DNA of 46,118 nucleotides from a virus. The translations under genes were made by a program, and so were the position numbers. The DNA is taken from IMG/VR virus record IMGVR_UViG_3300028048_000013. One strand, 5' to 3'. Shown here piece after piece: positions 2,458-15,313 of the stretch. Under the pieces are notes generated by a model. The model searched no databases. It was not told where the DNA came from and saw nothing but the letters and a program-made list of their open reading frames with translations. Position 1 is the first letter of the stretch. The number at the start of each line of letters is the position of its first letter.

Positions 2458-2612
2458 GTTCCATCCCGGATTTGGCCGTTTTTAGGCGATTTGCGGGGCT
2501 TTCACGGTCCGGGTGGTACAAGTTATCGTCCGGGCCGTAAAAGTGTCTTAAATCGAAGAAACGCAAAAAATAACTTATTTTGCACGAAAGTTTGAAAAAT
2601 AATCAACTTTTT

Positions 2613-2643
2613 TTTGGTAGTTAAAAAATAATGACTAACTTTG
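2613..2643 (+). promoter_or_regulatory. Bacteroidota-type promoter P1 (-33 TTTG 2613..2616, -7 TAACTTTG 2636..2643)
   Basis: 19-nt spacing between boxes; part of a roughly 110-nt cassette repeated at P2, P3 and P4. Confidence 0.7.
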
Positions 2644-2647
2644 TACC

Positions 2648-2688
2648 CGGGTTGAGGTTATGACCCGACGGCCGGGGCCGGTTCCCCG
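2648..2688 (+). promoter_or_regulatory. Two-hairpin 5' leader of P1
   Basis: CGGGT..ACCCG (2648..2667) and CGGGG-CCGGTT-CCCCG (2673..2688); same architecture with compensatory changes in P2-P4. Confidence 0.6.
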
Positions 2689-2707
2689 AACAAAAATAAC
2701 AACAGTT

Positions 2708-2941
2708 ATGGCAACGTTAAAATACACAACCCGCGAAATCAACGGCAATTACAAAATCAAGGTTTCCGGCCTGTTCGATGGCAAAAAGGTTAATACGCTT
2801 GTGGGCGTTTCCGGGTTCCTTAAAATGGTCAACGATATTGAACTTTGCAACCGTCTTTTGGACCGGGCGTTTAACGATATGTCCGATTGTTGTGTGTGCA
2901 AATTACGTCGCGGATTGAAGATTTCATTTTACGTTCATTGA
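2708..2941 (+). CDS. Hypothetical early protein (77 aa)
   Basis: ATG at 2708, 19 nt after leader hairpin 2. The upstream in-frame ATG at 2660 lies inside the leader hairpin. Confidence 0.65.
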   Translation: MATLKYTTREINGNYKIKVSGLFDGKKVNTLVGVSGFLKMVNDIELCNRLLDRAFNDMSDCCVCKLRRGLKISFYVH

Positions 2942-2949
2942 AAAATTAC

Positions 2950-2957
2950 TATCTTTG
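2950..2957 (+). promoter_or_regulatory. -7 box TATCTTTG upstream of the HNH endonuclease gene
   Basis: Matches TAnnTTTG; no clean -33 TTTG seen. Confidence 0.45.
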
Positions 2958-2987
2958 CAACGAACGGTTGTTTGCCCCAACCGATAC

Positions 2988-3050
2988 GAAATTTAATGCC
3001 CTGTAAAGTAAATCCACGGGGGCAAAACGTGGGTTGAAATACGGGGCGTT
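2988..3050 (+). promoter_or_regulatory. Structured leader element copy A (63 nt), terminator-like
   Basis: Outer helix AATGCCCTGTA/TACGGGGCGTT, inner helix CCACG/CGTGG, then T7 and the ATG. Paralogous to 9973..10035. Confidence 0.6.
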
Positions 3051-3059
3051 TTTTTATGT

Positions 3060-3542
3060 ATGGAAAAATGGAAAGATGCGCCCGGATTCCCCGGGTATCA
3101 AGTAAGCGACACGGGCCGCGTGAAACGTTCGATAAACGGAAAGATGTTGCGCCCGGTTCGTTATTCCAATGGTTATTACGTTGTCAATTTGTCCGGCCGT
3201 CGTATTGGCGTACATCGCTTGGTTGGATTGGCATTTATTCCGAATCCGGACGGGTTGCCGCAAATCAACCACAAAAACGAAATCAAGACGGATAACCGGG
3301 TTGAAAATTTGGAATGGTGCGATTCCAAATACAACAACAATTATGGATTAAGAAATCAAAAAGTAAGTGTTTCGCTTTCGAAGCCGGTTAAACAGTTAAC
3401 CCGGGACGGCATATTGATTCGTGTATTTTACGGCATCCACGAAGCCGGGCGGGAAACCAATATTAATTATCGAAATATTTACCTTGTTTTAGCCGGTCAA
3501 AGGAAAACGGCGGGCGGTTATAAATGGGAATATGCGTTATGA
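3060..3542 (+). CDS. HNH homing endonuclease (NUMOD4 N-terminus, HNH_3-type core)
   Basis: MEKWKDAPGFPGYQVSDTGRVKR...VHRLVGLAFIPNPDGLPQINHKNEIKTDNRVENLEW. Confidence 0.85.
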   Translation: MEKWKDAPGFPGYQVSDTGRVKRSINGKMLRPVRYSNGYYVVNLSGRRIGVHRLVGLAFIPNPDGLPQINHKNEIKTDNRVENLEWCDSKYNNNYGLRNQKVSVSLSKPVKQLTRDGILIRVFYGIHEAGRETNINYRNIYLVLAGQRKTAGGYKWEYAL

Positions 3543-3706
3543 CTGTTGAGGATATAAGGAAAGAAATTGCCCGGCGGCAATCATTCATTCACGACGCGTT
3601 AATTGGCCAATCGCCGGAAGATTTGGAACGGCATTGGCGGTTGATGGGTGCGCAAGATGCGTTCAAGGGAATGTTACAATTCATTGATGAAAACAACCAA
3701 AAATAA
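3539..3706 (+). CDS. Hypothetical protein (55 aa)
   Basis: ATGA overlap with the HNH gene stop; frame of track ORF 3524..3706. Confidence 0.55.
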   Translation: MTVEDIRKEIARRQSFIHDALIGQSPEDLERHWRLMGAQDAFKGMLQFIDENNQK

Positions 3707-3712
3707 ACAGAT

Positions 3713-3949
3713 ATGCAAAAATTCAAATTTGGCAATCCGGCGTCGGTCGTTGAGGTTTCGAAAAGCCCGTTGGACCGTCCGGAACCGGGCAACCGGTACA
3801 CGATTTTCGATTGTCTTTGCCGGGGATTCGGGCAAAACAACAAAGGCCCGCGCAAGACGTACCAAATAACCGCAACCACGCCGTCGCAAGCCGCCCGAAT
3901 GGCGATTGACTTTTACCGTAAAGATTTTTTCAGCAATGGCACGGAATAG
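3713..3949 (+). CDS. Hypothetical protein (78 aa)
   Basis: ATG-initiated ORF, tight packing, TAG stop. Confidence 0.6.
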   Translation: MQKFKFGNPASVVEVSKSPLDRPEPGNRYTIFDCLCRGFGQNNKGPRKTYQITATTPSQAARMAIDFYRKDFFSNGTE

Positions 3950-4226
3950 CAAAAGCACGAAAGGCGATGAATACCGCGCCATAATGGAAAAAGACGGTAT
4001 TCGGGAATACAAGGTTTTGGCGTTCGTGTTCCTTTCGGATATGGGACCGCAATATTTCCATTACGAATTGATGATGGCGGACCCGCGCCCGGTTTATTAC
4101 CTGTTCGATTGTTTCGGGGAAACGGCCCAAGTAATCGTCCCGAATAACGAACCGGAAAACGAACGGATGTGCATACAGTTGGCCGAATCTTGCGGCGGTT
4201 CAAAGACAACCCCAAATTTGCGATAA
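3936..4226 (+). CDS. Hypothetical protein (96 aa)
   Basis: First ATG in track ORF 3906..4226 (the track start is TTG). Confidence 0.55.
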   Translation: MARNSKSTKGDEYRAIMEKDGIREYKVLAFVFLSDMGPQYFHYELMMADPRPVYYLFDCFGETAQVIVPNNEPENERMCIQLAESCGGSKTTPNLR

Positions 4227-5074: not shown

Positions 5075-5147
5075 CCGGGTTCGGCCCGGAATCTTGCACC
5101 CGGAACCCGAAAAAATGCAATTTTTTGCGAAAAATTAAGAAAAATTG

Positions 5148-5177
5148 TTTGGTATTAAGAAAAAAACACTATCTTTG
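5148..5177 (+). promoter_or_regulatory. Bacteroidota-type promoter P2 (-33 TTTG 5148..5151, -7 TATCTTTG 5170..5177)
   Basis: Member of the repeated cassette; divergent from the minus-strand promoter. Confidence 0.7.
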
Positions 5178-5181
5178 TACC

Positions 5182-5221
5182 CGGAACGTTGATGGTTCCG
5201 ACCGACCGGGCGGGTTCCCGG
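5182..5221 (+). promoter_or_regulatory. Two-hairpin 5' leader of P2
   Basis: CGGAAC..GTTCCG (5182..5200) and CCGGG-CGGGTT-CCCGG (5206..5221). Confidence 0.6.
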
Positions 5222-5244
5222 AAACAGTATTGACCGTTTTTGTT

Positions 5245-5451
5245 ATGGCAATCAACATCAATTCCAACCCCAACATCCGCGAATATCGCGTTATGTATCT
5301 TTTCGGCGCGTGGGTTACAAAAGAAATCATCTTTGCCGAATCCGACGACGAAGCGAAATACGACGCGGCCGAATCCGCCGAATCGCTTAAAAATTGGCCT
5401 TATGCCGTGGCCCTGTTTTGTGGCAATCGCAAGGTCGTTTCTTACAAGTAA
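5245..5451 (+). CDS. Hypothetical early protein (68 aa)
   Basis: ATG 23 nt after leader hairpin 2; MAININSNPNIREYRVMYLFG... Confidence 0.65.
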   Translation: MAININSNPNIREYRVMYLFGAWVTKEIIFAESDDEAKYDAAESAESLKNWPYAVALFCGNRKVVSYK

Positions 5452-5732: not shown

Positions 5733-5739
5733 CGATTGG

Positions 5740-5762
5740 CCCGGGAATCATCCCGGGTTTTT
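5740..5762 (+). terminator. Rho-independent terminator
   Basis: CCCGGGA ATCA TCCCGGG followed by TTTTT. Confidence 0.75.
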
Positions 5763-5846: not shown

Positions 5847-6041
5847 GCCCGTATAGGCCAATTTCGGGCGATTTGGCGGCGTTTCCCGGCAAAATGGACC
5901 AACGGACCGTCCGGCGGCCGAAAGGCCCGTAAAACGAAAATCCGGGAAAAATAAGTGTTGGCCGGTCCGGCCCGGTCCCGGTCGGCCAAAAACGGTTTCT
6001 TAATGGCCGAAAAAGAATTTTTGAAAAATTATCAACTTTTT

Positions 6042-6072
6042 TTTGGTAATTAGGAAATAATACCTATCTTTG
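6042..6072 (+). promoter_or_regulatory. Bacteroidota-type promoter P3 (-33 TTTG 6042..6045, -7 TATCTTTG 6065..6072)
   Basis: 19-nt spacing; nearly identical to P1 from TTTGAAAAAT through GTACCCGGGTTGAGG. Confidence 0.75.
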
Positions 6073-6077
6073 TACCC

Positions 6078-6117
6078 GGGTTGAGGAACCAACCCAACCG
6101 ACCCGGCGGGTTCCGGG
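6078..6117 (+). promoter_or_regulatory. Two-hairpin 5' leader of P3
   Basis: GGGTTG..CAACCC (6078..6095) and CCCGG-CGGGTT-CCGGG (6102..6117). Confidence 0.6.
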
Positions 6118-6135
6118 GACTTAAAAACAACGACA

Positions 6136-6333
6136 ATGAACACAATTGAAACCGCCAACCGCACCAAAACAACGTATTTCGTTGAGTACATTTGCGACGA
6201 CCTTAACAACACGTATTGGCAATTGGTCCGTTCCCGTGACGCGGCAATACTTGCGGCCCACAAAGATTTGAACGACATTTACGCCCATTGCTTCATTTGC
6301 GGGATTAACAAACAGGACGTGACGATTTGGTAA
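6136..6333 (+). CDS. Hypothetical early protein (65 aa)
   Basis: ATG 18 nt after leader hairpin 2. Confidence 0.7.
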   Translation: MNTIETANRTKTTYFVEYICDDLNNTYWQLVRSRDAAILAAHKDLNDIYAHCFICGINKQDVTIW

Positions 6334-9204: not shown

Positions 9205-9930
9205 ATGGGCGGAAGAATTTACAGGCCCGAACAGGGCGCGGGAATCCTTGAATTACCCGAAATCGGCCGGTTGCACATTGGCAAAAAACAGATGGGCCAA
9301 AACGGCCGGGAATACCCGGTTTCCGTGGATTATTTCATACCGGCCGGAAAGTATGCCGGGATGTTCACGCAAGCGTTGGGCGAAAAGCCGCAAACCATTC
9401 AAGTAATATTCCCGGATGATTCCCCGGAAAAGGTATGCAACGAACGGTACGAATACCGCGACAACGCGGGCGCATTGGTCGCCAAGGGCGACGGCCGGAC
9501 GTTCGAAATTTGGGACGGCAAAAAATACGTTCCATATTCGGTTGATGCGTACCCGGACATTATGGACCAAATCGCAAAGAACAACCCGACAAAGCGCGGG
9601 GCCGACAATTGGGATATTGTCTTAACGTTGCGGTTCATTGTTCCGGCCGTCCGGGGAATCGTTGGCGTATGGCAATTTTCGACCAAGGGCAAGGCGTCAA
9701 GCGTCCGGAATATCCGGGAATCGTTCGATGGTGTGCAAATGATGCGCGGAACGGTAACGCAAACCGTGTTCGATTTGTCGGTACAGTTTGCAAAGAGTAA
9801 CAAACCCGGCGTTTCATCCCGTTATCCTGTTGTTTCGTTGGTTGCCAATGATACCCGGATTGAGGAAATACGCAAAGCGATTGCACCGACGCAAAATTTG
9901 TCGTTATTGTTGCCGGATAAAGAAAAATGA
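9205..9930 (+). CDS. Conserved-looking hypothetical protein (241 aa); a single-strand annealing or binding role is only a positional guess
   Basis: Lies next to the exonuclease; no motif I can name. Confidence 0.7.
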   Translation: MGGRIYRPEQGAGILELPEIGRLHIGKKQMGQNGREYPVSVDYFIPAGKYAGMFTQALGEKPQTIQVIFPDDSPEKVCNERYEYRDNAGALVAKGDGRTFEIWDGKKYVPYSVDAYPDIMDQIAKNNPTKRGADNWDIVLTLRFIVPAVRGIVGVWQFSTKGKASSVRNIRESFDGVQMMRGTVTQTVFDLSVQFAKSNKPGVSSRYPVVSLVANDTRIEEIRKAIAPTQNLSLLLPDKEK

Positions 9931-9972
9931 TTATATTTACATCAAATAACAGTTGCGGCCACAACTGACACA

Positions 9973-10035
9973 GAAATTTAATGCCCTGTAAAGTACCCCA
10001 ATCGTGGCCGCGATTGGTTGGAAATACGGGGCATT
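9973..10035 (+). promoter_or_regulatory. Structured leader element copy B (63 nt)
   Basis: Outer helix AATGCCCTGTA/TACGGGGCATT; inner helix CCAATCG/CGATTGG, a different sequence from copy A with the same geometry. Confidence 0.6.
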
Positions 10036-10044
10036 GCTCCTTTT

Positions 10045-10875
10045 ATGGATTTACAACGTAAAATTGACTTTGCAATAAAGTTGTTGCGTTCGATTCCGCA
10101 AGATGGACCGATTGAATTGTCGTATAGTGGCGGTAAAGATTCGGACGTAATCTTGGAATTGGCCAAAATGTCCGGTATTCCATTCGAAGCGATTTACAAG
10201 AATACAACGATTGACCCGCCGGGAACGATTGCGCATTGTAAGGAAAAAGGCGTTACGATTTTGAAACCGCGTGTTTCATCTCAAAAGATATTGGAAACAA
10301 AGGGTATGCCGTCAAGATGGCGTCGGTTTTGTTGTTCCGAATTGAAAGAATACAAAGTATATGACCGGGCAATACAGGGAATCCGCCGATGTGAATCAAT
10401 CAAAAGGGCAAAAATGTATAAAGAACCGGAAGAATGTAGAGTTTATCCAAATCGGGAAAAAGTACGTGTTTATTTTCCAATTCTTGAATGGACCGATAAA
10501 GATATTGAACAATTCATTGAGGACCGAAAAATAAAGTGTGCGCCGGTCTATTATGACGAAAACGGACAATTCCACGTTGAACGCCGTTTGGGTTGTTTGG
10601 GGTGTCCTTTGAAATCGGATGTTGGTTTAGCGGACTATACGAAATATCCAAAGTTGTTGAAAGCACATATAAAAGCATATCAAAAATTTTTAGATAACAA
10701 TAAAGGTAAAAAATTCGCTTCATTTCTTAACGGTTCCGCATACAACGGTTTCTTTTATCGTTTATTTTGTCGGTCAACCGGACAATATTTAATGTACATT
10801 GGCGGCGGCTTATTCCCGGAACAAAAGATTGATACAAAGGAATTTTTGGAACAATATTTTGGAATTGAATTATGA
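10045..10875 (+). CDS. PAPS reductase-like PP-loop ATP pyrophosphatase family protein
   Basis: LSYSGGKDSDVILELA PP-loop motif; C-terminal CLGCP; first ATG of the track ORF (the track start is TTG). Confidence 0.8.
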   Translation: MDLQRKIDFAIKLLRSIPQDGPIELSYSGGKDSDVILELAKMSGIPFEAIYKNTTIDPPGTIAHCKEKGVTILKPRVSSQKILETKGMPSRWRRFCCSELKEYKVYDRAIQGIRRCESIKRAKMYKEPEECRVYPNREKVRVYFPILEWTDKDIEQFIEDRKIKCAPVYYDENGQFHVERRLGCLGCPLKSDVGLADYTKYPKLLKAHIKAYQKFLDNNKGKKFASFLNGSAYNGFFYRLFCRSTGQYLMYIGGGLFPEQKIDTKEFLEQYFGIEL

Positions 10876-14619: not shown

Positions 14620-14806
14620 CGCGTATATTGCACGGGACCCGAACGGGATTTGCCGGATTATGGTCAAGCGGGCCAAATTCAAACATTGGTTCGAATTGGG
14701 CCAACACGGGCCGACCGACGCCGCGTTTGAACAGGCATTGGCGGCCGGAACGGTTCGATGGAATCCGGCGATTGAGGACAAAACAAAACTTTTTCGCAAA
14801 ATTTAA
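14603..14806 (+). CDS. Hypothetical protein (67 aa)
   Basis: ATG-initiated ORF with a 17-nt overlap. Confidence 0.55.
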   Translation: MGTKVDAYIARDPNGICRIMVKRAKFKHWFELGQHGPTDAAFEQALAAGTVRWNPAIEDKTKLFRKI

Positions 14807-14815
14807 CTAAAAATA

Positions 14816-14846
14816 TTTGGTATTATAAAATTTATCCTTATCTTTG
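14816..14846 (+). promoter_or_regulatory. Bacteroidota-type promoter P4 (-33 TTTG 14816..14819, -7 TATCTTTG 14839..14846)
   Basis: 19-nt spacing; fourth copy of the cassette. Confidence 0.7.
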
Positions 14847-14850
14847 TATC

Positions 14851-14890
14851 GGGTTAAGGAAACAACCCAACCGTCCGGGCGGGTTCCCGG
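14851..14890 (+). promoter_or_regulatory. Two-hairpin 5' leader of P4
   Basis: GGGTT..AACCC (14851..14868) and CCGGG-CGGGTT-CCCGG (14875..14890). Confidence 0.6.
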
Positions 14891-14905
14891 TAAAGACAAC
14901 GGGTT

Positions 14906-15077: not shown

Positions 15078-15148
15078 TGCGCCGTGGTGTAACGGCAACA
15101 CCCCGGATTTTGGTTCCGGTAATCCCCGTTCGAATCGGGGCGGCGCAA
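15078..15148 (+). tRNA. tRNA-Gln, anticodon UUG
   Basis: Cloverleaf folded by hand: acceptor TGCGCCG/CGGCGCA (U1-A72, as in bacterial tRNA-Gln), D arm GTGT/ACAC, anticodon arm CCGGA-TTTTGGT-TCCGG, T arm CCCCG-TTCGAAT-CGGGG. Confidence 0.85.
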
Positions 15149-15222
15149 CAAAAAGGGCCGCAAGCCCTGTTCTGTTAAAATTCCCGGGCAAGTAAGGCCG
15201 CGACGGCACGAACGCCCAACAA

Positions 15223-15303
15223 ACCCCCGTGGCGTAATGGTAGCCGCGATGGACTCAAAATCCATTCCCGCAAGGGGTGCCGGTTCGATTCCGGCCGGGG
15301 GTA
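15223..15303 (+). tRNA. tRNA-Leu, anticodon CAA (type II, long variable arm)
   Basis: Acceptor ACCCCCG/CGGGGGT, anticodon arm ATGGA-CTCAAAA-TCCAT, variable arm TCCCGCAAGGGGT, T arm GCCGG-TTCGATT-CCGGC. Confidence 0.85.
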
Positions 15304-15313
15304 CGAAAACGGA

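Follow-up and report, generated by a model that had tools for sequence, protein, structure and literature searches.

Why would a phage place the same short structured sequence in front of two genes as different as an HNH endonuclease gene and a gene for a PAPS-reductase-like protein? The question is raised by IMG/VR record IMGVR_UViG_3300028048_000013, a 46,118-nt stretch of viral DNA that was analysed as a whole and is called the window here (coordinates are on its + strand). An original prediction, made from the letters of the sequence, had described a duplicated 63-nt leader element at 2988-3050 (copy A) and 9973-10035 (copy B) and could not name it. The element is a real and strongly supported RNA family that is absent from Rfam, a structured leader of approximately 90 nt in phages of Bacteroidota. 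What the family looks like, where it sits and how it might act are taken up in turn.

Both copies were present as described, and the 5' block GAAATTTAATGCCCTGTAAAGTA and the 3' block GAAATACGGGGC were identical in the two. Allowing up to three mismatches, the 16-mer AATGCCCTGTAAAGTA occurred exactly twice in the window, against a shuffled expectation of 0.27, and none of 100 shuffles contained it two or more times. The fold was borne out on the + strand, where an outer helix of 11-12 bp encloses an inner hairpin that differs between A and B. The folding energies were -27.2 kcal/mol for A (z = -4.8) and -28.1 kcal/mol for B (z = -4.5), which none of 200 shuffles equalled, whereas the - strand folded far less well (-15.5 and -23.3 kcal/mol, respectively). 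The outer helix indeed has U·G in A where B has U-A. This wobble had been taken to work only as + strand RNA; the assignment to + strand RNA holds, but "only" is too strong since single-stranded DNA tolerates G·T. We base the RNA reading on the promoter, the U-tract and the strand asymmetry more than on the wobble. In the family alignment described below, 108 of 1084 standard pairs are G·U, equivalent to A·C mismatches on the opposite strand, which makes the fold specific to the + strand and supports the proposed + strand RNA element.

The 63-nt limits were too narrow. In a 180-nt alignment around each copy, the similarity between A and B extends about 50 nt upstream of the reported repeat, into a stretch that holds a promoter box, a covarying hairpin (H1) and an A-rich linker. 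The promoter, the 5' hairpin H1 and the pairing of the H1 loop with the loop of the inner helix P3 (the kiss) all lie outside the limits first given, and the full copies run from about 2927 to 3055 (A) and from about 9910 to 10044 (B). The parts follow in the order promoter (TAnnTTTG), 6-bp H1, A-rich linker, long hairpin (outer helix P2, internal loop, inner helix P3), U-tract and, about 10 nt on, a start codon (Table 1). No further copy was found in the window by pattern or by covariance model, which returned A at 82.8 bits, B at 62.7 bits and nothing else at E<=1. A generic kissing-hairpin scanner run over the window passed copy A alone strongly, the rest of its output being noisy.

Table 1. 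Parts of the two leader copies in the window.
Feature	Position	Strand	Sequence and remarks
Copy A promoter	2927..2957	+	weak -33-like TTTTAC 2927-2932; -7 box TATCTTTG 2950-2957
Copy A H1	2965..2983	+	CGGTTG 2965-2970, loop TTTGCCC 2971-2977, CAACCG 2978-2983
Copy A linker	2984..2994	+	AUACGAAAUUU; family consensus R-GAAA-(N)-UUAAU, apparently single-stranded (alignments A3, A5)
Copy A long hairpin	2995..3050	+	P2 = 2995-3005/3040-3050; P3 = 3011-3018/3028-3035
Copy A internal loop	3006-3010 opposite 3036-3039	+	AAGUA opposite GAAA
Copy A apical loop	3019-3027	+	GGGGCAAAA
Copy A kiss	2971-2978 with 3019-3026	+	UUUGCCCC with GGGGCAAA; loop complementarity
Copy A U-tract and gene start	3049-3055; ATG 3060	+	T7; HNH endonuclease ORF 3060-3542
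Copy B promoter	9910..9939	+	-33 TTGC 9910-9913, 18-nt spacer, -7 box TATATTTA 9932-9939
Copy B H1	9950..9967	+	CAGTTG 9950-9955, loop CGGCCA 9956-9961, CAACTG 9962-9967
Copy B long hairpin	9980..10035	+	P2 = 9980-9990/10025-10035; P3 = 9998-10004/10011-10017
Copy B internal loop		+	AAGUA(CC) opposite (UUG)GAAA
Copy B apical loop	10005-10010	+	UGGCCG
Copy B kiss	9955-9962 with 10004-10011	+	GCGGCCAC with GUGGCCGC
Copy B tail	10036..10047	+	GCUCCUUUU, degenerate U-tract, then ATG of PAPS-reductase-like gene 10045-10875

Covariation and invariant positions of the leader family

Pattern scans over IMG/VR, JGI metagenomes and GTDB genomes gave about 30 distinct homologues, mostly on contigs of 40-47 kb classed as viral in IMG/VR. 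Further loci, designated with L numbers like the rest, were gathered via neighbour proteins (the PAPS reductase, a Gp3-like protein and a phrog_32997 protein), so that family membership is independent of the element's own sequence. On these neighbour-fetched loci we used a covariance model, R1, that contained no pairing information for the kiss, and it added members with a diverged P2 (L067/68, L076/82, L078, L080, L081, L083, L087, L088, L090 and L071). At the site after the Gp3-like gene, diverged members in related phages have retained the kiss along with AGUA/GAA, the linker and the U-tract.

Covariation was tested on a structure-aware alignment of 36 sequences (A5) from rumen and gut phage contigs, in which the kiss was coded as a pseudoknot; an earlier test had been done on a 30-sequence version. 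The structure-aware alignments were N-padded and kept gap-free by MAFFT, which on its own misaligns H1, and the kissing columns were positioned via complementarity. Standard pairs filled 93.2% of the cells, against 65.4% in shuffles (0 of 500 reached the observed value) and 38-44% when the partners were slid. Both sides have changed in 29 of the 33 pairs, comprising 6/6 in H1, 7/7 in the kiss, 7/11 in P2 and 9/9 in P3. H1 was paired in 95% of its cells and the kissing helix in 100%, the latter value being partly by construction because of the way its columns were positioned. RNAalifold, applied to a model-derived alignment, predicted H1, P2 and P3 independently. The original prediction had staked its two helices on support from homologues, and these helices, P2 and P3, covary.

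Evidence for the kiss that does not depend on the placement of columns comes from two sources. In all 43 parsed sequences, obtained by pattern scans or with the kiss-blind model, an exact 6-nt complement of the P3-loop core lies within the H1 loop, and the core always starts 9 nt after AGUA. The second source is the contrast between cognate and non-cognate loops. The 36 sequences display 20 distinct loop pairs. Complementarity between cognate loops spans 8 nt in 25 sequences, 7 nt in another 8 and 6 nt in the remaining 3, whereas non-cognate combinations mostly reach only 2-5 nt. The energies of the loop-loop duplexes range from -8 to -16 kcal/mol.

What, then, is held constant while the helices change? 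Across the 36 sequences, which include members not chosen by pattern, the invariant columns are AGUA (63-66), GAA (94-96) and two C-G pairs of P2. AGUA opposite GAA is the sequence signature of the bulged-G motif known as sarcin-ricin/loop E, and it is oriented as in the sarcin-ricin loop. By sequence, the internal loop carries exactly this arrangement inside a helix, flanked as in that motif by an A·A (or G·A, A·C) mismatch, a feature that had been overlooked at first. We treat loop E as a module within the leader and not as a family assignment, and Rfam shows no similarity to the 5S or 23S rRNA models. In addition, a G·U wobble at P2 position 57 or 58 is retained in 32 of the 36 sequences. 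A kink-turn was rejected on inspection, as neither strand of AAGUA/GAAA fits the C-stem/NNN/GA register.

The comparison with Rfam suggested at the outset gave no named family. At gathering thresholds, Rfam 15 matched two tRNAs in the whole window and nothing at the leader; at E<=10, the 200-nt regions around A and B gave noise alone, the best match being sar RNA, whose 19 bits fall short of its gathering score of 43. Fourteen related loci had no match to Rfam 15. A CRISPR-repeat mimic was rejected as a 13.6-bit noise match (E = 9.7), and a tRNA, tmRNA or tRNA-like element was rejected because ARAGORN and Rfam found only tRNA-Gln at 15078 and tRNA-Leu at 15223 in the window. The cores of hammerhead, twister, pistol and hairpin ribozymes gave no consensus match by eye and no Rfam match, and nothing suggests self-cleavage. 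Among 50,697 GenBank phages, blastn of the leader and megablast of 10 kb of the window returned nothing relevant and no leader, and Bacteroides phage BKO1-3, the nearest isolate by portal protein, has none at the syntenic site. We found no description in the literature of a terminator with a loop-E module whose apical loop is kissed by a 5' hairpin of the same RNA.

These observations bear on the idea of a riboswitch, a small-molecule aptamer fused to a terminator. A 5' leader, a pseudoknot-like tertiary contact and a terminator would suit one, and the lysine riboswitch contains both loop-E motifs and kissing loops. However, the invariants of the leader are the loop-E consensus alone, with no conserved junction or pocket visible; no alternative antiterminator pairing is present, the Rfam searches were negative, and the downstream genes (HNH endonucleases, PAPS reductase, replication proteins and ORFans) form an incoherent set with no metabolic theme. 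We rejected this identity and regard it as most improbable.

The element is also carried by L045-L051 (genome_contigs), some of them about 45 kb long and thus of whole-phage size, which are binned in metagenome-assembled genomes (MAGs) of Alphaproteobacteria, Eubacteriales, Acutalibacteraceae and Candidatus Enterousia. A host assignment from these labels was rejected, since they represent phage contigs in unrelated MAGs that are probably mis-binned.

Promoter, U-tract and possible modes of action

The consensus of the Bacteroidetes sigma-A promoter is TTTG at -33 and TAnnTTTG at -7, with the -33 element about 19 nt upstream. Counts of promoters, terminators and start codons were made on 48 distinct family members. 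A TAnnTTT[GA] box lies 11-19 nt upstream of the kissing core in 46 of them, and TTG occurs at about -33, 15-25 nt upstream of the -7 box, in 36. The upstream box of the leader matches the pattern of a Bacteroidota sigma-A promoter and is a predicted promoter, with a weak -33 element in copy A. Given its distance from the kissing core, H1 would sit at the extreme 5' end of the transcript. In copy A the promoter region takes in the stop codon of the upstream open reading frame (ORF) at 2939-2941, and in copy B the promoter overlaps the 3' end of the Gp3-like gene (stop 9928-9930). The window's portal protein is 67-69% identical to the portals of Bacteroides, Alistipes and Parabacteroides phages, which fits the promoter type.

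At the other end of the leader, at least six T within the 10 nt after P2 were found in 45 of the 48 members, and an ORF on the same strand starts 9-15 nt beyond P2, most often 10-11 nt. In copy A, P2 (GCCCUGUA/UACGGGGC plus outer A-U pairs) leads straight into U7, which is the sequence form of an intrinsic terminator. Copy B lacks this form: its U-tract is degraded (GGGGCAUUGCUCCUUUUAUG), which is true of few members, and with the U-tract lost, copy B is not terminator-like in the manner of copy A. The tails had been described correctly, A being followed by T7 and then ATG and B ending 9 nt before its ATG at 10045, and the likeness to a terminator or attenuator that was drawn from the tail of A stands for A and for the family but does not extend to B.

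Several smaller features lie in or near these tails. In copy B alone, a terminator scan showed that the P2 3' arm GGGGC can pair with GCUCC (10028-10044) into a 5-bp hairpin followed by UUUU, a small structure resembling a terminator that would be mutually exclusive with P2. Plain terminator-like hairpins at operon ends occur at 2431-2452 and 5738-5759, each with an A-tract, a 9-bp stem, a 4-6-nt loop and a U-tract; P2 with its U-tract follows the same style, and these hairpins have no 5' partner hairpin. Within the leader of copy A, an ATG at 2997 (AATGCCC) opens a 13-codon ORF (window 2997-3038), and in some relatives (L069) the reading frame continues into the HNH gene. This ATG is absent in L012, L013, L016, L067, L083 and L088 and is therefore unlikely to be functional, and a leader-peptide attenuator was rejected.

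Is the pairing of a 5' hairpin with a terminator loop peculiar to this family? At site B of other relatives, between the Gp3-like gene and the next gene, we found a second leader family with no sequence similarity to the first (L052/L074, L072, L079, L084, L085/L092 and L058/L065). After its promoter box come an H1 whose loop measures 8 nt, a small hairpin in the middle and a terminator of 12 bp with a loop of 11 nt, followed by a U-tract and an ATG. The H1 loop and the terminator loop are again complementary, in five covarying versions (CCACUAC/GUAGUGG, CCACGAC/GUCGUGG, CUGCGAC/GUCGCAG, CCGUCAC/GUGACGG and CCGCGAC/GUCGCGG), and the spacer is long enough for an intramolecular kiss. A pattern scan for more members of this second family returned solely two contigs that were already known. 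Because an unrelated family repeats the design, the complementarity of a 5' hairpin loop to a terminator loop points to a general regulatory principle and not to a one-off.

A third repeated family, of promoter and 5' untranslated region (5'UTR), has four copies in the window (2592-2700, 5126-5250, 6021-6140 and 14795-14905). Its -7 boxes lie at 2636, 5170, 6065 and 14839 in the form TTTGGTA-N19-TAnCTTTG, followed by UACCCGGGUUGAGG...CCGGGCGGGUUCCCGG and an ATG 20-40 nt on. These four copies have no U-tract and no conserved loop-loop complementarity, so that the kiss goes with promoter-proximal terminators; the third family is probably the leader of another temporal operon class. Just 3' of one of its copies are tRNA-Gln(UUG) at 15078-15149 and tRNA-Leu(CAA) at 15223-15304.

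How could the leader act? Its anatomy suggests, as the likeliest reading, a promoter-proximal attenuator, with termination at the U-tract, release of a small RNA and metered read-through, and to this we give about half of our confidence. A host-type promoter would start an RNA of about 85-95 nt that folds into H1 and the long hairpin with P2, the loop-E internal loop and P3. The H1 loop would then pair with the P3 loop in a kiss of 6-8 bp and tie the 5' end to the top of the terminator hairpin. Transcripts from the leader's own promoter and from upstream ones would mostly stop at the U-tract and yield a compact, nuclease-resistant RNA of about 90 nt, while a set or regulated fraction would read through to the gene that starts about 10 nt further on. 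The efficiency of terminator formation or the lifetime of the RNA may be set by the kiss and the invariant AGUA/GAA module, perhaps in concert with a recognition factor. Each copy is a self-contained cassette of a Bacteroidota siphophage of about 45 kb, and the leader stands at the head of an early/replication operon.

Several points weigh against attenuation. It is from sequence alone that we infer termination, control of read-through and RNA stability. Intact terminator-like copies precede essential replication genes, so that read-through must be substantial or regulated, and 43 non-structural ORFs of the window showed no recognisable domain of an antiterminator, a NusG-like or an RNA-binding protein. 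About 6% of the copies, including copy B and L006, keep the fold despite a degraded U-tract, which hints at a role beyond termination. For a mere terminator a tetraloop would be enough, and the kiss thus implies an extra function. By our estimate, the linker of 10-14 nt is short for an intramolecular head-on kiss atop a rod of about 24 layers made of P2, loop E and P3, which leaves a sharp bend, a kiss between two molecules (a dimer) or mutually exclusive states to be considered. Finally, Bacteroidota are poor in Shine-Dalgarno sequences and use A/U-rich translation-initiation regions, and the U-tract could be such a region instead.

An alternative is that the leader forms a small RNA gene of its own (promoter, about 90 nt, terminator) and that its RNA works in trans, either as a decoy or regulator or by pairing with itself; on geometric grounds, an antiparallel homodimer would remove the problem of linker length. 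Downstream expression would then be a side-effect of leaky termination, and the loops might join two molecules as in phi29 pRNA. The full promoter and terminator anatomy, the compact fold with both ends tied by the kiss and the survival of the fold in copies with a degraded U-tract agree with such an RNA, for which the invariant loop-E module and the conserved single-stranded linker are possible binding sites. Yet the leader always lies 9-15 nt upstream of a same-strand ORF and is never free-standing, sites complementary to the linker are not in excess in the phage (9 against 14.6 expected), no target or partner was identified, and the spacer of the second leader family permits an intramolecular kiss and so makes a dimer unnecessary. 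We consider a trans-acting RNA to be unlikely.

The pattern of conservation raises a further alternative, namely that the leader is an operator-like RNA read by a protein or by RNA polymerase, in the way of nut/put antitermination, BglG/PyrR-type control or a T4 gene 32-type repressor site; the kissing complex might be read by its shape, as Rop reads ColE1 RNA I/II. Strict conservation is limited to P2, AGUA/GAA and the linker, whereas H1, P3 and the loops covary freely, and the G·U wobble kept in P2 and the fixed spacing to the ATG point the same way. The kiss is the sole feature common to the two unrelated leader families, as expected for shape recognition, and there are two copies per genome, each just 3' of a promoter, like nutL/nutR and putL/putR. 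Bacteroides is reported to use leader-specific NusG paralogues (UpxY) that enhance elongation (PMC11685472). Against an operator, the window has no Pfam match to NusG/KOW, Q, N or an RNA-binding domain, and the put/nut elements carry no terminator of their own. An operator would refine the attenuator model, so that the probabilities of the two overlap; by itself we rate it as quite unlikely.

The 20 orthogonal loop pairs, the different pairs in the two copies of one genome (the window and the L008 contig) and the design shared by two unrelated families are compatible with yet another use of the kiss, as a sequence address. The leader would then be a self-specific RNA switch, in which the terminated RNA, or a factor that reads the kiss, acts on nascent copies with the same loops. 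We put this forward as a conjecture that is probably wrong.

Genes behind the leader and gene exchange at its sites

The window approximates a whole siphovirus-like genome with every gene on the + strand. It encodes an amidase, a GIY-YIG endonuclease, the HNH endonuclease (3060-3542), an exonuclease, the Gp3-like protein, the PAPS reductase (10045-10875), a replication initiator, a resolvase, two tRNAs, the terminase subunits, the portal, head proteins and a tape measure. The ORF behind copy A contains the Pfam domains NUMOD4 and HNH_3 and belongs to the HNH endonucleases in PHROG, and that behind copy B matches Pfam PAPS_reduct. Among 44 distinct downstream proteins, HNH_3 was found in 23, with NUMOD4 in 15 of these, and PAPS_reduct in 3. 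Two unrelated HNH families occur behind the leader; the other downstream genes encode replication or helix-turn-helix proteins and ORFans.

At site A, homology between the window and L016 spans the leader, after which the window has the HNH gene and a small ORF (3070-3700) where L016 has an 85-aa gene; from 3701 on the two are homologous again. The leader is thus the 5' boundary of a gene-swap slot. In many relatives it is absent behind the phrog_32997 gene, so that leader and gene look like a cassette inserted there. Site B heads a replication module, in which the leader is followed first by an optional insert that encodes either the PAPS reductase or an HNH protein of 121 aa, then by alternative alleles of a replication organiser and by a conserved gene of 300 aa. 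HNH ORFs lie flush between the leader and the next gene, as in L069, where the HNH gene occupies 3839-4204 and the next ORF begins at 4205. A group I intron (I-HmuI-like) was rejected on these grounds, because there is no Intron_gpI match, the element lies between complete ORFs behind a promoter box, and the HNH ORFs directly adjoin the next gene.

The tie to a homing endonuclease that had been suggested is upheld by the 23 HNH_3 proteins, but the element is not part of the mobile unit of one endonuclease, since the replication module and other genes also follow it and since the HNH genes behind it are of two unrelated families. For the same reason we regard the leader as a regulatory cassette that is resident, with endonuclease ORFs settling behind it, and not as a component of one endonuclease. 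If the leader is an attenuator, such ORFs would lodge there repeatedly on account of the promoter it offers and the tight metering of their start; nuclease genes would be well served by expression that is low and metered, which would explain their accumulation.

Other nuclease genes were noticed as well. Proteins of about 145 aa with a GIY-YIG-like N-terminus (..FVYIV..PLYVGGT..) lie behind the leader in L030 (321-755) and L083 (4659-5105); they have no Pfam match at E<=0.001, and their sequences suggest a third endonuclease type in the same slot. In the window, a GIY-YIG-type homing endonuclease gene at 695-1336 (PHROG 314/7168), between the amidase gene and a DUF6549 gene, is the genome's second mobile nuclease, and a TAACTTTG box lies just 4 nt before its ATG.

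Could the element then act at the DNA level alone, as a recombination joint or a landing pad for homing endonucleases, with an incidental RNA fold? The swap slot, the absence of the leader in many relatives and the flush insertion of two HNH families among its downstream genes all speak for a role of this kind. A precedent is PeSL of T4-type phages, repeated cassettes of promoter and stem-loop/terminator that border variable, often ORFan or mobile genes, mark swap junctions and mediate modular shuffling (PMC2839356, PMC4122927). Judged by sequence, the leader has the traits of such cassettes, being repeated (two in the window), bordering a swap slot, present or absent among relatives and followed by a variable gene. 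However, homology for recombination cannot account for the compensatory changes seen in four helices, the covariation of 20 loop pairs, G·U pairs specific to one strand or an invariant AGUA/GAA between variable helices, and a variable P3 between conserved P2 arms is unlike a gene-conversion tract. As the whole explanation, a DNA-level element is in our view very unlikely. As a second role of the leader, recombination or homing at the DNA level is an evenly balanced proposition.

Relation to known systems and significance

Known promoter-proximal terminators and attenuators include lambda pR'-6S RNA-tR' under Q and the antisense-controlled attenuators of pT181 and pIP501. The leader shares with them a constitutive promoter, a short leader, a GC-rich stem with a U-tract and downstream genes that need read-through. 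Unlike them, it shows neither an antisense promoter nor a pairing that would form an alternative antiterminator, no factor is known for it, and its terminator loop pairs with its own 5' hairpin.

The P4 CI RNA (seqA/seqB/seqC) and the c4 RNA of P1/P7 belong to immunity systems, and in P4 a processed RNA acts on nascent transcripts in lysogenic immunity. Like the leader, these are sense RNAs at the 5' end with mutually complementary short segments that covary among related phages; the P4 and c4 RNAs control premature termination or the expression of downstream genes. In contrast to P4, the complementary segments of the leader are in two hairpin loops about 50 nt apart within a unit of about 90 nt that has its own intrinsic terminator. 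The genes scanned in the window included neither an integrase nor a repressor, and no lysogeny genes were seen, unlike in P4.

Other likenesses concern the RNA itself. ColE1 RNA I/RNA II with Rop forms fully paired loop-loop helices of 6-8 nt whose sequence is free as long as complementarity is kept, as in the leader, but its loops are on two antisense transcripts whereas both loops of the leader are on one sense RNA. HK022 put and lambda nut are also promoter-proximal, with two copies per genome, and are two-hairpin RNAs just behind an early promoter that act in cis on transcription and render RNA polymerase resistant to terminators; they have no kissing loops, no terminator of their own where the leader has a U-tract, and no evident sequence similarity to it. 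The phi29 pRNA is a phage RNA with two mutually complementary loops that covary among relatives. It is, however, a single-copy packaging RNA of about 120-174 nt from protein-primed podoviruses with intermolecular loops, whereas the leader has two copies and its phage uses a terminase. The PeSL stem-loops differ from the leader in being simple GGGG...CCCC hairpins that end upstream transcription, with no covarying tertiary contact reported, in phages of Proteobacteria with sigma-70 promoters (PMC2839356, PMC4122927). The leader can therefore be likened to attenuators in its presumed function, to the P4 and c4 RNAs in concept, to PeSL in genome dynamics and to ColE1 in RNA-RNA chemistry, and it is a member of none of them.

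What would the finding mean for these phages? Bacteroidota are dominant bacteria of gut and rumen, and little is known about the timing of gene expression in their phages. The leader explains where homing-endonuclease genes settle, flush behind it, and it marks joints of gene exchange. If the element merely decorated a terminator, its value would lie mainly in annotation. The approximately 20 naturally orthogonal loop pairs could be used as a test set for the effects of loop-loop pairing on intrinsic termination and as parts for synthetic biology in Bacteroides. Should the kiss prove to be a sequence address, each operon or phage strain would have an orthogonal, protein-free code for feedback or incompatibility, and a 5' hairpin that kisses a terminator loop would represent a general, unrecognised class of transcription control in Bacteroidota phages.

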